This document shows positions 35,164 to 53,458 of a stretch of 64,000 nt of DNA, piece by piece. The notes below the pieces were generated by a model. It searched no databases and had not been told where the DNA came from. It saw only the letters and a list, made by a program, of their open reading frames with translations. The DNA is from Acidobacteriota bacterium (GTDB taxonomy: Bacteria > Acidobacteriota > Terriglobia > Bryobacterales > Bryobacteraceae): contig JBBIJF010000002.1 of NCBI GenBank assembly GCA_037446115.1, forward strand, positions 204,994 to 268,993, given 5' to 3'. How positions within the stretch are numbered: the stretch's first letter is position 1; each line of letters opens with the position of its first letter. The translations under genes were made by a program, and so were the position numbers.

Positions 35164-35460
35164 TTAGACGACCTTCAAGAAGATGATCGCCAGCGTGTAC
35201 AGGGCCAGCGATTCAATCAGCACGAGGCCGAAGATCAGGGCGAACCGGATCGCTCCGGCCGCCGAAGGATTGCGCGCCATGCCCTCTGCGGAGGCGGCCA
35301 CGGCCTTGGCCTGCGCCAGTCCGCACAGACCCGAAGCAAAAGCCATGGAGAAACCGGAGGTGATGGCCACCCAGTTGGGACCGCCCTGCTGCGTCTGCGC
35401 CAGAACCGGGCTGGCGAGCAGGAGCAAAGCAGCCAGCGTCAGCATCAGCTTGACTTTCAT
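35164..35460 (-). CDS. atpE: F0F1 ATP synthase subunit c
   Basis: GLCGLAQAKAVAASAEGMARNP...IFGLVLIESLALYTLAI, with essential carboxylate in second helix; N-terminal extension. Confidence 0.8.
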   Translation of the reverse strand: MKVKLMLTLAALLLLASPVLAQTQQGGPNWVAITSGFSMAFASGLCGLAQAKAVAASAEGMARNPSAAGAIRFALIFGLVLIESLALYTLAIIFLKVV

Positions 35461-35619
35461 CGTCGTGAGTCTCCTTGTGTGAAATATGAACCGCCCCAGG
35501 AGGTGGTTCCCGTCATCCTCTTGCAGCCGGGCTCACACTGGAGGGCGGGATGAAGCCGGAATCAACCCGTATCGTCGGCAGAGGGCGTCGCCGGGACCCG
35601 TCCGCCCGGAACCCCCTTG

Positions 35620-36357
35620 TCAATGCTCATGTTCGACCGCACTGGAGACGTAGATCATCGTCAGCAGGGCGAAGACAAAGGCCTGCAGGAAGGAAACGAA
35701 AACGTGCAGGCCCATGAAGATCGCCGGGATCGCCACCGGGATCAGACTCAAGAACACGAGCGTCACCTGCTCGCCGGCGAACATGTTGGCATAAAGACGG
35801 ACCGTCAGGGAAAGCAGGCGCCCGGTGTGGCTGATGATCTCGATGGGAATCATCAGCGGCGCCATGACTTTGATCGGGCCGGCGAAGTGCGCCAGGTATC
35901 CGCCCACGCCGTGGGCTTTGAACCCCATCAGGTTGTAGTAAAGAAAAGTGACCAGGGCGCACCCGAGCGGTACCGGAGCAAACATCGTTGGCGACTCGAA
36001 CCCTGGAATGATCCCGATCAGGTTGCAGAACAGAATGAACAAAAAGATCGTGCTGAACAGGTGCACGTACCGGGGCCCGTCGTGACCGACCACGTCCTCG
36101 GCCTGGCCGCGTAAGAAGCCGTAAATGATCTCGAAGCAGTGTTGCAGCTTGCCGGGCCGGTCCACGGAAAGTCGGGGGCGCAGCGCGGCAAACAGGACGA
36201 GCACGACGGCCACCACCAGCACTTGCATGGCCACGTAGTTGGCCCACGGCTTCTCCGGATTCTCCGCATGCAGGCCCACCCAGCCCAGGAGGGTGTTGGC
36301 GAAGCCGGCGCAATAGCGGTTCAGCAACGCCGTGAACCAGAGCTCATGCTCGGGCAT
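35620..36357 (-). CDS. atpB: F0F1 ATP synthase subunit a
   Basis: SLTVRLYANMFAGE (conserved Arg helix) and C-terminal ...ALLTMIYVSSA. Confidence 0.85.
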   Translation of the reverse strand: MPEHELWFTALLNRYCAGFANTLLGWVGLHAENPEKPWANYVAMQVLVVAVVLVLFAALRPRLSVDRPGKLQHCFEIIYGFLRGQAEDVVGHDGPRYVHLFSTIFLFILFCNLIGIIPGFESPTMFAPVPLGCALVTFLYYNLMGFKAHGVGGYLAHFAGPIKVMAPLMIPIEIISHTGRLLSLTVRLYANMFAGEQVTLVFLSLIPVAIPAIFMGLHVFVSFLQAFVFALLTMIYVSSAVEHEH

Positions 36358-36727
36358 AGACAAGCTCGTAGAGGATTTCCACAATAACCGCGGCAGCGGC
36401 CACGAACAAGCCGAGAATCGCGGCCGTCAGGTTCAATCCGAAATATCTCACTATAACATAGCCCGCAAGACCGAACAGGAGGTAGCGCAGCGAAAGAAAA
36501 GCGAACAGCCGGCGAGAGGGGCGGCGGCCGCCCGGGCCGAGCGAGGCCACCAGTTGATGCAGCCAGCTGAAATTGAGGAAGGAAACCAAGGCCCCGGCCA
36601 GAAAGCCGACGCCCCACTCCCACCCCCGCAGCGTAGCTGCGGCCAGCGCTCCCGTCACGGTGAGCAACGCCATGAAAGCCCGCAGCCGGCGCATGGCGCG
36701 GTCAAAGGCCGCTTCGTCCGTGTCCAT
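36344..36727 (-). CDS. ATP synthase protein I-like small membrane protein
   Basis: 127 aa, four hydrophobic helices, position immediately upstream of atpB. Confidence 0.45.
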   Translation of the reverse strand: MDTDEAAFDRAMRRLRAFMALLTVTGALAAATLRGWEWGVGFLAGALVSFLNFSWLHQLVASLGPGGRRPSRRLFAFLSLRYLLFGLAGYVIVRYFGLNLTAAILGLFVAAAAVIVEILYELVYARA

Positions 36728-37772: not shown

Positions 37773-39101
37773 TCAGAGAATCTCTTCGAAGCGCGGATCC
37801 CAGCGAACCTTGCGCCCGCGCTTGAAGGACTCAACCGACATGACGATCGTGACGGCTTCTTCGAAGGCGCGGTCCACGCCGCAGCGAGGCGTCTGGCGGC
37901 TCCGCACACAGTCGAAGAAATCTTCCATGTGGCTGGAGACTTTGACTTCGTCCGGACCCATGGAGTAGTCCGGCGGCACCACGGCGTCCTGCGGCTGCAG
38001 ACCGAGCTGGCGTGCCGCCTGTACGGCGGCGGCCCGTTTCTGCTGGAACTCCGGCTTCCATTCGGCCCCGTAGGTGCGGCAGAAGCGCGGCGAGACCTCC
38101 AGCGTCTGGTCCCGTCCCAGAATCTGCGTGACTTCGCCGTTGTGCGTGTTGTGGAAGGTGCAGCCGAAGGTGATCGCCAGTTCCCGGCTCGGGTAATCAA
38201 ACAGTACGTGCCACATGTCGGGAACATTCCGGTCGCCCTTCCAGAAGTACGTGCCTCCTTGCGTCATGGCGGTCTCCGGGATGCCCATGCCGATGATCAT
38301 GTTGACGCCGTCCCAGACGTGGCTCATCAGATCGCCTGCGATCCCGGTGCCGTAGTCCCACCAGCAACGCCAGGTGAAGAAACGTTCGGCGTCAAACGGA
38401 TGGTACGGGGCGTTTCGGATGAAGCGGTCCCAATCGATCGTGTCCGGATTGGCCTCCTTGGGCAGCTGCGTGATGTTGTAGGCGGTGTAAAACTTCCACT
38501 CGGGGGTATCGCGCGTGCGATCAATGTAAGTCCGCACCAGAGTGACCTTGCCGAGCTGCCCGGAGCGATAGATCTCCCGGGCCTTGTGGTAAGCCGGCAG
38601 GCTGTTATACTGGTGGCCGAGTTGCATGACGACGCGGGCGGATTTGACGGCGTCGCGCATCCTCTTGGCGTCTTCCAGTTTCGTGCACCAGCCTTTTTCC
38701 ACGTAGATGTCCTTGCGCGCCTGGGCGGCGGCGATCACCTGGGGCGCGTGCCAGAAATCCGGCGTGGCGATGATGACAACGTCAATGTCGGGATCCGCCA
38801 CGGCTTTCTCCCAGTCTTTCACGATCCGCACCCTGGAATTCTTCGTCTGCTTCCGGGCGCGCTCGATATTGGGTTCGTAAAGATCGCAGATGATGCGGAT
38901 TTCCGTGTTCGCTACGTCCTGCGCCTCCCGCAGGAGCTGAATTCCCCGAGTACCGACGCCGATGACCGCCACGCCGAGAACACTGGCCGGGCTGCGCTGG
39001 GCAAAAACGGCGGGAGCGTTTTGAAGGATCGCGGCGCCGGCGCCGGCAGCTGCGATGTCCTTGAAAAAAGATCTGCGCGAGCGGGAGTTGGGATGGCTCA
39101 T
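37773..39101 (-). CDS. Gfo/Idh/MocA-family NAD(P)-dependent oxidoreductase with Tat signal
   Basis: MSHPNSRSRRSFFKDIAAAGAGAA Tat motif; Rossmann GVAVIGVGTRG; AGGAGG RBS before ATG 39099-39101. Confidence 0.8.
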   Translation of the reverse strand: MSHPNSRSRRSFFKDIAAAGAGAAILQNAPAVFAQRSPASVLGVAVIGVGTRGIQLLREAQDVANTEIRIICDLYEPNIERARKQTKNSRVRIVKDWEKAVADPDIDVVIIATPDFWHAPQVIAAAQARKDIYVEKGWCTKLEDAKRMRDAVKSARVVMQLGHQYNSLPAYHKAREIYRSGQLGKVTLVRTYIDRTRDTPEWKFYTAYNITQLPKEANPDTIDWDRFIRNAPYHPFDAERFFTWRCWWDYGTGIAGDLMSHVWDGVNMIIGMGIPETAMTQGGTYFWKGDRNVPDMWHVLFDYPSRELAITFGCTFHNTHNGEVTQILGRDQTLEVSPRFCRTYGAEWKPEFQQKRAAAVQAARQLGLQPQDAVVPPDYSMGPDEVKVSSHMEDFFDCVRSRQTPRCGVDRAFEEAVTIVMSVESFKRGRKVRWDPRFEEIL

Positions 39102-39272
39102 CGGACCTCCTGATTCCAAATCAGTGTGAACTCCGCTTCCGATATTACGCCACAATGGAAGGAGTCTGCCGGGCAGGCGGCGCCGCCTCGGGGTCGTTGT
39201 CGCCGAAGACCCCGTTTCCAGGCGTAACTTCCATAAGTCCGCAGACGAATACGTGGCTACGGAGGCACACCG

Positions 39273-39845
39273 ATGACACTGTGGCTGTGGTTGGGCGTGG
39301 CGCTGGCCGCTCAGTTCGGTCCGAAGGACCAGCGCGCACTGCCGCCGTTCGACCTCGAGCGCGTGCGTCCCGGAGAGGTCGCCCCCGATTTCACCTTGCC
39401 CGCGGCAAACGGCAAACCCGTGAGCCTGTCGGATTACCGCGGCAAGAACGTCGTGCTCGTATTCTACCGGGGTTATTGGTGACCTTACTGCACGGCGCAA
39501 CTGGTCGAGTTGCACAAGCTCCTGCCGGAGCAACGAAAGGCCGACACGGTCATCCTCGCCGTAAGCCCGGACCCCCTGGACAAAATCGGCCAGATGGCGG
39601 CGAAGGTGGAACAGCAATCCGGCGTCAAGTTTGCGATCACACTCTTGAGCGACGCCGACCACCGCGTGATTGACCGTTACGGGCTGTTGAACGAAACCGC
39701 GGCAAAGCAGAACCGTTTTCTTCCCCACCCGACCACGTACGTCATTGACCGCGAGGGCGTGGTCCGGTGGAAATTCACGGAGAAGGACTACCGGATCCGT
39801 CCGACCAATGAAATGATCCTCCGCGAGCTCGACAAACTCCGGTAA
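39273..39845 (+). CDS. periplasmic TlpA/redoxin-family thiol:disulfide oxidoreductase, candidate selenoprotein (in-frame TGA at 39480-39482 at the first Cys of the W-C-x-x-C active site)
   Basis: GGAGG RBS, signal peptide MTLWLWLGVALAAQF; ...VVLVFYRGYW-TGA-PYCTAQLVELHK... then ...PTTYVIDREGVVRWKF; both halves in one frame, combined length 190 aa. Confidence 0.65.
39483..39520 (+). promoter_or_regulatory. candidate SECIS hairpin (stem GCAAC/GUUGC, apical loop UGGUCGA containing GGUC) 14 nt downstream of the in-frame UGA
   Basis: 5-bp stem 39497-39501/39509-39513 plus flanking G-C pair; loop carries the GGU(C) found at the apex of E. coli fdhF-type SECIS. Confidence 0.45.
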
Positions 39846-39880
39846 CCCCGGAACGCTCGGCGCAGCTATAATCACAGGGC

Positions 39881-40660
39881 ATGACGCGGCGGGGCTTTCT
39901 GCTCGCACCCAGTGCGGCGGCGCTGGGGTGGACTCAGACAAGGACGCGGTTCCCGACGGAGGTCGCGCGCAAAGTCGAGCTCGCCTTTCCCACTCCGGGC
40001 CCGCAGCCGAACGGCTTGCAGGCCACACCCGGCGGGCTGTGGATTCTGGATCAGAAGACCAACCGGGCTTCCCTGGTCTCCTACGAAGACGGCCGCCCGC
40101 TGCGGGAGATCGAAACGGAATCCGACCGCGGCAGCGGGATCACTTTTGACGGCGAAGCGCTTTGGATTGCCTCGACCTACGATGCTCTGCTGCTGCGTGT
40201 GGATCCGGGCTCGGGACGTACTTTGAAGAAACTGCCGGCGCCGGGCGCCGGTGTGGTGAAGTGGGGAACGCGCGGCTCGAATCCCGCGGTCACGGGCGCC
40301 CACGGACTGGAATTTCGCCGCAACCAACTGTGGGTGGCCGTGCCGCCCGCCGTCACGATCTATGTCCTTCATCCGGAGGACGGATCCGTGCTGCGCTCCT
40401 TTGCGGCGCCCGGCGTGAGGCCCCACGGGCTCGGCTGGGATCCCGACGGAGCGCTGTGGTGCGCGGAAAGCAATTACCGGGCTTTTTTCAAGATCGCCCC
40501 CGCCTCGGGCCGAATCCTGAGACAGATCTTGCTGCCTGCCGCCGAGCCCGAGGTGAACGGTGCGGTCGTCGTACCGCACGGGATGACGGTGTGGAACCGC
40601 CAGATCTGGTTCTGCGTGGCCGAGACGGCGCAGGTGTACCGCCTGCCACTGGAGGGCTGA
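39881..40660 (+). CDS. Tat-exported beta-propeller protein (glutamine-cyclotransferase/NHL-like repeats)
   Basis: MTRRGFLLAPSAAALG Tat motif; repeated GxxxD/W blades (GGLWILDQ, GEALWIAST, RNQLWVAV, DGALWCAES, NRQIWFCV). Confidence 0.5.
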   Translation: MTRRGFLLAPSAAALGWTQTRTRFPTEVARKVELAFPTPGPQPNGLQATPGGLWILDQKTNRASLVSYEDGRPLREIETESDRGSGITFDGEALWIASTYDALLLRVDPGSGRTLKKLPAPGAGVVKWGTRGSNPAVTGAHGLEFRRNQLWVAVPPAVTIYVLHPEDGSVLRSFAAPGVRPHGLGWDPDGALWCAESNYRAFFKIAPASGRILRQILLPAAEPEVNGAVVVPHGMTVWNRQIWFCVAETAQVYRLPLEG

Positions 40661-50166: not shown

Positions 50167-51777
50167 GTGACGATCGAGCACGGGCCCGTACTGGCGGCGC
50201 CGGCCGTGCTGGTACGCAGCCGCCTGCCCCGGATTGCCAGACTTCTGCGGCCGCATGCCCGCAAGCTGGAGCGCAAGTTCCTTGAGCGCCTGCGCGCACT
50301 GGGCTACGATGCCCGCCAGCGCCGGGCCCTGGCCGCCATCACCCCCGGCGCGCTGGCCCCGCTCTTGGAGCGCCGCAGCGCTGAGCCCTGGCTGGAACAG
50401 ATCAGCTACCACGCCCGCCGCCTGGCCAAGCTGAACGTGGCTCCCGAGCGGGTCTGGGAGGCGCTCGGAGAGTACGACCGGCTCATGAAGCCGGTGCTCG
50501 AGGCCGTACCGGCCCGAGAGACCGCCGAGTTGCTGTGGGCCCGCGAGCAGCTTCGCTTCAGCATTGTGCTCACGCTGAACAACGCCTACTATCAGGTCCG
50601 GCAGGCCGAGGCGGCCACCTACCATGAGCTGTTCCGGGCAGAGCTGGAGTCGCAAAACCTCGCGGAGTTGCTCGGCCGCCTGCTGGAGATCCTGTGGCGG
50701 TACAGCCAAGCCGCCACGGCCGCCTTCTTCCGGCTGGATGCCGAGCAGCGGTGCTGGTATCTGGAAGCGCGCGCCCCGGCGGGCCGGCGTCCGGCGGCTC
50801 CCGGCCTCCAGGTGCCGGCCCGGCGAGCCGAGTGGGCCCGGCTGTCGCGCCCCCTCTCGGCGGTGCGGGGGAAAGGAGCGTGGCCGGCCCTCGACCCCGC
50901 CTGGCGGCGTTTCGGAACCTGCTGGTCCATCCCGCTCCGCCGCGGCGAGGGCCTGGCGGGCGTGTTGCAGTTCGCTTTCCGGGGCCCGTACGAATGGCTT
51001 CCCCGCGAACGGGAACTGCTCGCCGCGGCGGCCGAGCGCTGCCTGCTGGCCGCAGAAAAAGCGCGGCTGGTGGAGAGCCTGGCCGCGCGCGAGGAGCAGG
51101 TACGGCGCCTGGCCGAGCATCTGATGCTGGCCGAGGAGCGCGAACGGCGCCGCATCAGCGCCGAACTCCACGATGAGACCGGCCAGTCGCTGCTGTGCAT
51201 CCGCCTGCAGCTGGAAATGCTGGAACGGAGCATTCCCCGGGACCGGCCCCAGCTGCGCGCCGGGCTGGAGGAGGTCCGGCGGCTCACCGAGCGCACCATC
51301 GTTGAGATGCGCCGCTTGATTGCGGACTTGAGTCCGGCGGTGCTCGAGCAGTTCGGCCTGGCGGCGGCGCTCAAGCAGCTGGTCGGACGTTTCCGGCGCT
51401 TGCACCCGGCCCGGGTCCGCCTGCGCCTGCTGCGGGTGCGGCGGCTCCCCAGAAGCCTGGAGCATCTGGTCTACCGGCTGGTGCAGGAATGTCTGAACAA
51501 CGTTGCCCGCCACTCGGCCGCCCGCCACGTAAACATCCGGGTCCGGTTCGCCGATAAACAGTTAGTGGTCCAGGTCGAAGACGACGGTGTCGGTTTCGAC
51601 GTGAACGCGGCGCTGGCCAAACGCGACTCGTTCGGTCTGGCAGGCATGCGCGAGCGGGTGGCGTGGTACGGCGGGCGCTACCACATCCAAAGCCGGCCGG
51701 GACACGGCGCGAAGATCCGGATCGAGCTGCCGCTGCCTGAGGCGGGGCGGCCGGAGACGCCCCCGGCGGCGGAATGA
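50167..51777 (+). CDS. sensor histidine kinase (GAF-like N-terminus, HisKA_3 dimerisation domain, HATPase_c), NarL-type partner
   Basis: H-box RRRISAELHDETGQSLL; C-terminal ATPase (VQVEDDGVGF, GLAGMRERV). Confidence 0.85.
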   Translation: MTIEHGPVLAAPAVLVRSRLPRIARLLRPHARKLERKFLERLRALGYDARQRRALAAITPGALAPLLERRSAEPWLEQISYHARRLAKLNVAPERVWEALGEYDRLMKPVLEAVPARETAELLWAREQLRFSIVLTLNNAYYQVRQAEAATYHELFRAELESQNLAELLGRLLEILWRYSQAATAAFFRLDAEQRCWYLEARAPAGRRPAAPGLQVPARRAEWARLSRPLSAVRGKGAWPALDPAWRRFGTCWSIPLRRGEGLAGVLQFAFRGPYEWLPRERELLAAAAERCLLAAEKARLVESLAAREEQVRRLAEHLMLAEERERRRISAELHDETGQSLLCIRLQLEMLERSIPRDRPQLRAGLEEVRRLTERTIVEMRRLIADLSPAVLEQFGLAAALKQLVGRFRRLHPARVRLRLLRVRRLPRSLEHLVYRLVQECLNNVARHSAARHVNIRVRFADKQLVVQVEDDGVGFDVNAALAKRDSFGLAGMRERVAWYGGRYHIQSRPGHGAKIRIELPLPEAGRPETPPAAE

Positions 51778-52606: not shown

Positions 52607-53458
52607 ATGACGCGGAGAGAACTGCTCGCCTTTGTCGCTGCCCTCCAAACCCTCACGTTGAAAGCGGCGCGCTTGCCTATCCGCAAGGCAGTGTGGTACG
52701 GCATGCTGCCCAAAGAACTCAGCGTCGCCGAGCGGTTCCGTCTGGCGCGGGACGTCGGATTCGAGGCCATCGAGTGTCCGACCGCCGACGAACGTCTGGC
52801 CGAAGAGTTCAAGAAAGCCTCCGAGGAAGCCCGGCTGCCCATTCATTCCGTCATGAACCAGGCGCACTGGAAGTTTCCGCTGTCTTCGGCGGATCCCGCC
52901 GTCGTGGCCGAGAGCATGAAGGGCATGGAAACCAGCCTGCGCAACGCCCGTTTCTGGGGTGCCGACACCGTGCTTCTGGTGCCCGCCGTGGTCAACCCGC
53001 AAACCAGCTACCGGGACGCCTGGACGCGCTCCCAGGAGCGGATCCGCAATCTCATTCCCCTGGCGCAGGAGCTGAAGGTCGTCATCGCGGTCGAGGACGT
53101 CTGGAACCGGTTCCTGCTCAGCCCGCTCGAGTTCGCGCGCTATGTAGACGAGTTTCAAAGCCCCTGGGTGCGCGCCTACTTCGACGTCGGCAACATCGTG
53201 CTGTACGGTTATCCTCAAGACTGGATCCGCACGCTCGGCAGCCGCATCGTCAAGCTCCATCTCAAGGACTTCCGCTTCCGGAAAATGCAGGCCGAGTTTG
53301 TCAACCTGCGGGAAGGCGACATTGACTGGAAAGAGGTCCACAAGGCGCTGGCGGAAATCGGCTACAAGGGCGACGCCACGGTGGAACTCGCCGCAGGCGA
53401 TGAAGCGTATCTCCGGGATGTGGTCCGGCGCGTGGATTTGATTCTGGAAGGCGCCTGA
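52607..53458 (+). CDS. sugar phosphate isomerase/epimerase (xylose isomerase-like TIM barrel)
   Basis: GFEAIE...VIAVEDVWNRF...YFDVGNIVLYGYPQDWIRTLGSRIVKLHLKD typical of AP_endonuc_2 family. Confidence 0.75.
   Translation: MTRRELLAFVAALQTLTLKAARLPIRKAVWYGMLPKELSVAERFRLARDVGFEAIECPTADERLAEEFKKASEEARLPIHSVMNQAHWKFPLSSADPAVVAESMKGMETSLRNARFWGADTVLLVPAVVNPQTSYRDAWTRSQERIRNLIPLAQELKVVIAVEDVWNRFLLSPLEFARYVDEFQSPWVRAYFDVGNIVLYGYPQDWIRTLGSRIVKLHLKDFRFRKMQAEFVNLREGDIDWKEVHKALAEIGYKGDATVELAAGDEAYLRDVVRRVDLILEGA

Follow-up and report, generated by a model that had tools for sequence, protein, structure and literature searches.

A probable Prx-like selenoprotein gene with a covarying hairpin downstream of its UGA codon in an Acidobacteriota genome

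The stretch of DNA analysed here (the window; 64,000 nt of contig JBBIJF010000002.1, positions 204,994 to 268,993, from the Acidobacteriota bacterium assembly GCA_037446115.1) carries on its forward strand two adjacent open reading frames (ORFs), 39273..39482 and 39510..39845, that share a frame and are separated by TGA 39480-39482 as the sole intervening stop. This arrangement had been described in an earlier inspection of the letters made without database searches (the sequence-only reading), and it was confirmed in the sequence. Read through the TGA, the locus forms a complete coding sequence (39273..39845, + strand, 190 codons and TAA). The 190-aa product reads ...NVVLVFYRGYW-U-PYCTAQLVELHK... 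or, in a rendering reaching further upstream, ...KNVVLVFYRGYW-U-PYCTAQLVELHK..., and the TGA context FYRGYW-TGA-PYC places the motif W-U-P-Y-C at residues 69-73. A Shine-Dalgarno-like GGAGG read from the sequence (39261..39265, +) lies 7 nt 5' of the ATG at 39273, and a GGAGG motif likewise precedes the ATG at the syntenic locus L001. Very likely, 39273..39845 is one gene that encodes a 190-residue thioredoxin-fold oxidoreductase with the active site Sec70-Pro-Tyr-Cys73, its UGA being decoded as selenocysteine (Sec).

The UGA codon and its counterparts in homologues

The assignment of codon 70 (39480..39482, +) to Sec rests on the comparison of TGA- and Cys-containing homologues and on alignments that place U on U. 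In a scan of one genome per species, from which the best 80 loci were returned, TGA was present at the orthologous codon in 80/80 loci. By record title, these comprised 28 Acidobacteriota (11 Bryobacterales, 8 Blastocatellia) and 40 Gemmatimonadota, with many Longimicrobiales; the remaining loci came from Binatia, Rokubacteria, Udaeobacter, Eisenbacteria, metagenome-assembled genomes (MAGs) labelled deltaproteobacteria and a few others. Those nearest to the window (58-68% identity) were the Bryobacterales loci and one MAG labelled 'Acidobacteria bacterium'. A metagenome scan intended as a Cys control set was seeded with a Cys-only alignment; despite this seed, TGA was found in 75/79 loci and Cys in 4/79. 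After pooling, 150 distinct DNA sequences with TGA (Sec form) from about six phyla were opposed to 6 with TGC/TGT (Cys form), a set that stayed small even after three added look-ups. Only TGA or TGC/TGT was found at the orthologous codon. The TGA had been proposed to occupy the position of the first Cys of a W-C-x-x-C motif, and in agreement the homologues showed TGC/TGT or WCP(Y/F)C there, as did the solved Geobacter protein 3hdc with WCPYC.

The top 120 database proteins of a protein search fell into three classes. Full-length proteins with FYRG(Y/H)W-C-P(Y/F)-C, thus with Cys at the UGA position of the window, accounted for 67. A further 44, which were 105-127 aa long and 65-94% identical, were C-terminal fragments beginning at varying residues just past the motif, with start sequences such as LHKLLP, MKQLVELH, LPEQRK, VQRKAD and MELHSLLP differing among relatives. 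The other nine (P0001, P0010, P0012, P0014, P0019, P0025, P0030, P0051 and P0108) were of full length and carried Trp at the Sec codon (WWPYC) in public gene calls. Two of these were traced to TGA in the DNA with identical flanks (P0051 = L077, P0108 = L029); thus, the gene calls behind the Trp forms took TGA for a Trp codon. P0001, the nearest Trp form, has an extra C-terminal extension of ~60 residues with more Trp, as expected under such calling. The 44 fragments and nine Trp forms bear out the statement that gene callers cut this gene at the UGA. The sequence-only reading had named a family routinely split at this point as evidence against its proposal; the family was found not to be truly split, and the fragment starts vary.

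Synteny with the window was found in four JGI contigs (L001-L004), which retain the TGA and are 91% identical in the C-terminal half; they are annotated with two genes of 69 aa and 111 aa, each matching AhpC-TSA. The corresponding 111-aa 'peroxiredoxin' ORF of the window (39510..39845, +) is a gene-caller artefact with a TTG start within the 3' arm of the hairpin described below. The homologous region aligns without gaps, and as far as W69 the residues do not vary between phyla. Positional codon entropies were 0.97/0.84/1.47 upstream and 0.89/0.74/1.33 downstream of the TGA, with the third position highest and the frame unchanged. This codon periodicity on both sides of the TGA indicates that the halves are translated as one protein. 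Since TGA terminates 23/31 Pfam-supported genes of the window, UGA is not reassigned in this genome.

The covarying hairpin downstream of the UGA codon

The hairpin (39497..39513, +) resembles a selenocysteine insertion sequence (SECIS) and consists of a 5' arm (39497-39502, GCAACU), a loop (39503-39507, GGUCG) and a 3' arm (39508-39513, AGUUGC). Its stem begins 14 nt past the UGA in the window and in every sequence compared. A hairpin at this distance had been called by the sequence-only reading; its position stood and was supported by conservation and covariation, but the stem is not as drawn there, having 6 pairs and a 5-nt loop in the window. In the consensus of the family, a stem of 7 pairs closes a 3-nt loop, with 39503:39507 forming the seventh pair in most relatives. 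The apical GGUC motif was likewise retained in part: it is present in the loop of the window, but family-wide only the first loop base G is invariant, the second being G or U.

RNAalifold, run on alignment A2 with 82 sequences, independently gave a 7-pair helix (columns 48-54 with 58-64, equivalent to 39497-39503 with 39507-39513 of the window). Paired cells amounted to 94.8%, compared with 26-47% when the 3' partners were slid by 1-3 columns, and 0/500 shuffles attained 94.8%. Covariation was observed at 4/7 pairs. The outer pair was UA in 40, GC in 30 and CG in 1 sequences. The fourth pair (GC 68, AU 13) couples codon position 3 of Gln (CAG/CAA) to codon position 1 of Leu (CTG/TTG), both changes being synonymous, and the innermost pair (CG 47, UA 13) couples Leu CTC/CTT with Glu GAG or Lys AAG. 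Third-position entropy in the 3' arm was 0.00 bits for Leu and 0.06 bits for Glu/Lys, whereas the codons just downstream reached 1.6-1.9 bits, among them two Leu codons a few positions further on with 1.6 bits.

The central five pairs were unbroken in 150/150 Sec forms versus 2/6 Cys forms. When the Cys form P0004 (L165) was compared with its nearest Sec relatives L086 and L087, a TTG to CTG exchange was found that breaks one pair. Moreover, 30/67 Cys proteins read QLxGM, so the stem cannot be encoded in these. A stem that is intact in Sec forms and broken in most Cys forms is the pattern expected of a SECIS needed only at UGA. A second RNAalifold helix of 5 pairs (UACCG with UGGUG, window 39465-39481, A2 columns 16-20 with 28-32) was not counted in the element; it would run across the UGA and take in its U and G, and its columns are codon-fixed with zero compensatory changes.

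For comparison with known elements, Zhang and Gladyshev reportedly introduced a general bacterial SECIS model with bSECISearch in 2005. The hairpin of the window shares with this model and with the E. coli fdhF SECIS a stem-loop inside the coding sequence shortly past the UGA. The likeness to fdhF presumably lies in the G/GU start of the loop, GGUC being located ~21 nt past the UGA in the window. Unlike these elements, the stem is short (6-7 pairs), has no predicted bulged U and lacks a covarying lower stem that includes the UGA. By the general bacterial mechanism, the hairpin would act as a SECIS and recruit SelB-GTP-Sec-tRNA(Sec) to the ribosome, and UGA 39480-39482 would give selenocysteine in place of a chain end.

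Fold, active site and relation to known families

With U replaced by C, the product matched the Pfam model AhpC-TSA (PF00578) over residues 33-166 (E=1e-34, 119.6 bits at a cut-off of 26) and Redoxin with E=3e-26. No NCBIfam model reached its cut-off for the window protein. The best NCBIfam match was the thiol peroxidase model PRK09437 (71 versus a cut-off of 140 bits), with lower scores for PrxU (43 vs 270) and PrxQ (37 vs 260); the AhpC and Tpx models remained below cut-off, too, and ResA (52 vs 170), TlpA (26 vs 230) and DsbE (17.7 vs 123) stayed far under theirs. The initial TlpA/ResA/redoxin naming needs to be qualified: the best Pfam family is AhpC-TSA, and the family is published under the name 'Prx-like thiol:disulfide oxidoreductase' and not as TlpA or ResA.

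An AlphaFold model was made of the Cys homologue P0004, which is 60% identical to the window protein. It had a pLDDT (predicted local distance difference test) value of 90.5, and its helix 71-80 begins right past residue 70. The model was about equally near to PrxQ/BCP, AhpE and ResA/Etrx2, with target-normalised template-modelling (TM) scores of 0.79-0.88. Together, the Pfam domain and the P0004 model identify both gene halves as parts of a single thioredoxin-fold protein, in line with the proposed joining of the two ORFs and with the Cys homologues, which are single proteins.

The nearest solved structures by sequence were 2ywn (a Prx-like protein from Sulfolobus), 3hdc (a Geobacter thioredoxin-family protein) and AhpE from M. 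tuberculosis. In the alignment to 2ywn and AhpE, Cys73 (TGC, 39489..39491, +) falls on the peroxidatic Cys of their TxxC motif, Sec70 on the Thr, and Arg66 replaces the conserved Pro. Cys73, the putative resolving Cys of U-x-x-C, is invariant in alignments A1 and A3, while Sec70 corresponds to the attacking Cys of CxxC proteins. The segment PHPTTYVID (39723..39749, +) aligns with a P-x-T-F-(I/V)-(I/V)-D stretch in 3hdc, a CxxC protein that reads P-D-T-F-I-V-D there, and probably forms a loop facing the active site, the proline of which would be in cis; P151, P153 and D159 are invariant in the homologue alignment. The N-terminus is a probable short signal peptide, MTLWLWLGVALAAQ (39273..39314, +), with cleavage after AAQ as suggested by homologues that have classical signal peptides ending in ...A-x-Q/A directly before (Y/F/L)GPKD. 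Judged from sequence, the gene product is probably exported.

Sec70 would be situated at the N-terminal end of helix alpha-1, in the position of the attacking Cys of thioredoxin-like CxxC proteins. By analogy to the fold and to CxxC/UxxC relatives, its selenolate may attack an oxidised substrate (disulfide, sulfenic acid or peroxide), and Cys73 would resolve the intermediate with formation of an intramolecular selenenylsulfide. An external reductant of the envelope would then reduce the selenenylsulfide and recycle the enzyme.

A Prx-like thiol:disulfide oxidoreductase is said to have been predicted as a selenoprotein family by Kryukov and Gladyshev in 2004. The window protein has the hallmarks of this family: a PF00578 match, the motif W-U-P-Y-C and a whole-domain alignment with U on U. 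BLASTP gave 38% identity to the Solibacter usitatus member (E=2e-28), 33% to that of Geobacter sulfurreducens (E=6e-25) and 31% to that of Syntrophus (E=4e-21), with U aligned on U in each case; the statement that Prx-like U-x-x-C selenoproteins are known was thereby corroborated with published members. The 2006 survey by Zhang et al. lists 8 members of the Prx-like selenoprotein family including the Solibacter usitatus one, and the published motifs are TFYRGAW-U-PYC (Geobacter) and LVFYRSADW-U-PYCKTQLVEL (Solibacter usitatus) (PMC1794560). A Global Ocean Sampling (GOS) survey reported 225 'Prx-like 1' selenoproteins (pfam00578, UxxC; PMC2398784).

Like the window protein, the Solibacter member has a signal peptide and QLVEL directly past the motif; it differs by its length of 343 aa with a C-terminal extension, whereas the window protein is a single 190-aa domain. 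The family was first described in anaerobic Deltaproteobacteria, whereas relatives of the window gene occur mainly in Acidobacteriota and in Gemmatimonadota MAGs and were almost wholly of the Sec form in the sampled loci (150 vs 6 distinct sequences). The identity of the window protein to published members, 31-38%, places it in a separate subfamily. The window gene is therefore a divergent addition to the known Prx-like selenoprotein family and not a new kind.

Of the solved structures, the PrxQ/BCP and AhpE peroxiredoxins (2ywn, 3hjp, 1xvw) matched best by sequence as well as by structure, and an Arg in the ...DHRVIDRYG... segment of the window protein is aligned to that of NREVVKKY in 2ywn. 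Unlike in canonical peroxiredoxins, however, the Pro and Thr of PxxxTxxC are replaced by Arg66 and Sec70 in FYRGYWUPYC. With TlpA/ResA/CcmG proteins (1su9, 4nmu, 2yp6, 3hdc), the window protein shares the W-C-x-x-C position at a helix N-terminus, the P-T-T-(Y/F)-V-I-D loop, the export signal and a target-normalised TM-score of about 0.8. It differs from them by scores under the model cut-offs and by the lack of cytochrome-maturation genes close by: no ccm/res genes for cytochrome c maturation were present within +/-10 kb in the syntenic loci or among the conserved neighbours of roughly 160 loci. By these comparisons, the window protein belongs to the Prx-like family and neither to the canonical peroxiredoxins nor to TlpA/ResA/CcmG.

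Probable selenium trait, rival explanations and gene neighbourhood

An ORF matching selD was located <=3 kb from the gene in eight loci, mostly from Longimicrobiales (L032, L040, L046, L055, L067, L083, L117, L134). In Longimicrobiales-type genomes, selD follows the Prx-like selenoprotein gene at a distance of ~2 kb, as in L055 (L055:5620-6530; 345 bits on TIGR00476). An in-frame TGA within selD (SHGAG-U-ACKLG) was found in 7/7 loci checked, i.e. all eight except L067, so those selD products are selenoproteins themselves. Between the two genes of L055 lies a GCV_T-family gene on the opposite strand; the selenoprotein gene and selD therefore do not form one operon. For Solibacter usitatus, SelA, SelB, one Prx-like selenoprotein and two selenoproteins of the FdhA type are on record (PMC1794560 supplements); this organism belongs to the Bryobacterales, the best-represented order among the nearest relatives of the gene. 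The selD adjacency in relatives and the Sec trait of Solibacter indirectly support a selenium trait.

Decoding of the UGA as Sec is carried by the Sec/Cys pair at the codon, the coding conservation flanking it, the hairpin with its covariation and fixed spacing, the fold and the homology to a published family. A number of observations weigh against it. The 64-kb window contained none of selA, selB, selD and tRNA-Sec: ARAGORN detected zero tRNA genes in the window, tblastn of the window with SelD from L055 gave noise only, and Pfam analysis of ~40 window ORFs revealed no SelA, SelB or SelD. ARAGORN also gave no tRNA-Sec in any of the fetched loci. Neighbour clustering of roughly 160 fetched loci identified no partner conserved across phyla. 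The Cys-form control comprises six distinct sequences that are phylogenetically non-independent. The signal peptide claimed by the sequence-only reading is present in homologues, but that of the window copy has 14 residues, which is unusually short, and no basic residue. As the stem coincides with a coding palindrome (Gln-Leu-x-Glu-Leu), protein constraint accounts for some of its conservation. The hairpin does fold and its helix is recovered by RNAalifold, but the 61-nt fold of the single sequence (39480-39540) had z = -0.5 versus shuffles, so significance had to rest on comparison. Rfam gave no match at the gathering score in the whole window nor even at E<=10 in 39200-39900, and the model scan suggested for the hairpin thus yielded neither a SECIS nor another credible RNA family; as bacterial SECIS elements are short and gene-specific, this miss weighs only weakly against the hairpin. 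Finally, a 2026 review terms the Prx-like family, represented by WP_010940744.1, 'predicted with high confidence' and not verified (PMC13188914).

A dead gene, in which a Cys codon was mutated to TGA or misread in sequencing, is a practically negligible explanation. A single base change converts TGC/TGT to TGA and gene callers indeed give two ORFs, but the same TGA is shared by 150 distinct sequences from several phyla, with coding constraint on both flanks and no further stops or frameshifts. It is also extremely improbable that the locus comprises two independent small genes, one for a 69-aa N-terminal product and one for a separately initiated protein of 111 aa. TTG 39510 is a possible start, and the databases hold many fragments of 105-127 aa; however, the fragment starts vary between relatives, and the TTG is part of the conserved stem. 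On its own, each half would make up an incomplete thioredoxin fold, with strand beta-1, helix alpha-1 and the active site cut off from the remainder, and the Cys homologues are single proteins of ~200 aa.

Two further alternatives concern the decoding event itself. Insertion of another amino acid at the UGA, either by genome reassignment (Trp/Gly) or by SelB-like, SECIS-dependent incorporation of Cys via a selC*-type tRNA-Cys(UCA), retains a small likelihood. Opal-reading selC* tRNA-Cys species occur in some bacteria (PMC5389517), and some JGI gene calls give Trp at the codon. Against this, the use of TGA as terminator in 23/31 Pfam-supported window genes excludes reassignment, Trp is implausible at a catalytic Cys position and the 'W' calls are TGA in the DNA; the reports of selC* concern Firmicutes, Thermodesulfobacteria, Nitrospirae and Proteobacteria and do not include Acidobacteria (PMC5389517), and several relatives have selD, itself encoding a selenoprotein, next to the gene. 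Very unlikely, too, is a hairpin without RNA function that is a by-product of the peptide Gln-Leu-x-Glu-Leu, with read-through depending on something else. In a GC-rich genome, the common codons of CAGCTC...GAGCTG make up a natural palindrome, and the non-significant single-sequence fold would fit this explanation. It is countered by compensatory changes that couple synonymous sites (CAA with TTG, CAG with CTG), by covariation of a Leu third position with the Glu/Lys first position, by the near-zero third-position entropy in the 3' arm while adjacent Leu codons are free, and by stem degradation in Cys forms with the same peptide (L165, L124, L167).

Given Sec decoding at 39480-39482, public protein collections contain wrong versions of this gene and of well over 100 relatives, namely as two fragments (69 aa and ~111 aa), as C-terminal 'peroxiredoxin' stubs or with an active-site Trp. 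As a consequence, the use of selenium is underestimated for abundant soil phyla such as Acidobacteriota and Gemmatimonadota. The hairpin alignment, with its synonymous covariation and its decay in Cys forms, could seed a family-specific SECIS or protein model. The understanding of selenocysteine decoding is unchanged, the family having been predicted about twenty years ago; the main value lies in the annotation correction and in a clean comparative example.

In five of seven fetched Cys-form loci (L136, L159, L161, L166, L167), the gene is divergent and head to head with dsbD (L166:2650-4890; L167:350-2569; L159 and L161:467-2626; L136:2-187). The dsbD beside Cys forms is full-length, with DsbD_N, DsbD_TM and Thioredoxin_7, and in L166 msrB (SelR) is additionally found beside it; dsbD was adjacent to 0 Sec-form loci. 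The position of dsbD next to Cys forms may be taken as a hint about the reductant. In 14 loci, a gene of the YpdA family (TIGR04018, 401 bits), encoding a putative bacillithiol disulfide reductase, is located 1-2.5 kb upstream of the selenoprotein gene, as in L083:538-1545; the other 13 loci are also from Gemmatimonadota.

It is conceivable, if rather doubtful, that the relatives of the window gene form a distinct, so far unannotated, exported Prx-like U-x-x-C subfamily with a role of its own, distributed across Acidobacteriota, Gemmatimonadota and other soil and sediment phyla, in which Sec is nearly fixed, the DsbD linkage of the Cys sister group has been lost and the gene lies near a Sec-containing selD in Longimicrobiales-type genomes. 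Such a role could be, for example, a selenium-supply-dependent reduction of peroxides or disulfides in the envelope, not interchangeable with the Cys enzymes.

In the window, the selenoprotein gene is flanked by a divergent GFO/IDH/MocA oxidoreductase gene on one side and by a beta-propeller gene on the other. A promoter and terminator scan of 38900-40100 detected nothing. An opposite-strand ORF of 751 codons (37773-40028, -) spans both the GFO/IDH/MocA gene and the selenoprotein gene. Its real GFO/IDH/MocA part covers ~37773-39113; the remaining antisense shadow ORF, which recurs in 136 loci, was rejected as a gene and attributed to GC-rich codon structure.

The other in-frame TGAs found on scanning the window, for example 51775-51777 and 53456-53458, were rejected as selenoprotein candidates because they are ordinary stops between adjacent same-frame genes. 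The pairs around TGAs 53456 and 51775 encode a xylose-isomerase-like TIM barrel with a peptidase S49, and a histidine kinase with a response regulator, respectively. At 1431-2845, a gene for an extracytoplasmic function (ECF) sigma factor is followed by an NrsF-family anti-sigma gene, the start of which overlaps the sigma stop. Elsewhere, the window contains cstA, a prolyl oligopeptidase gene, an ArgZ-like arginine dihydrolase gene and ribD with a riboflavin synthase gene, and an atpI-atpB-atpE cluster is located at 35164-36727.

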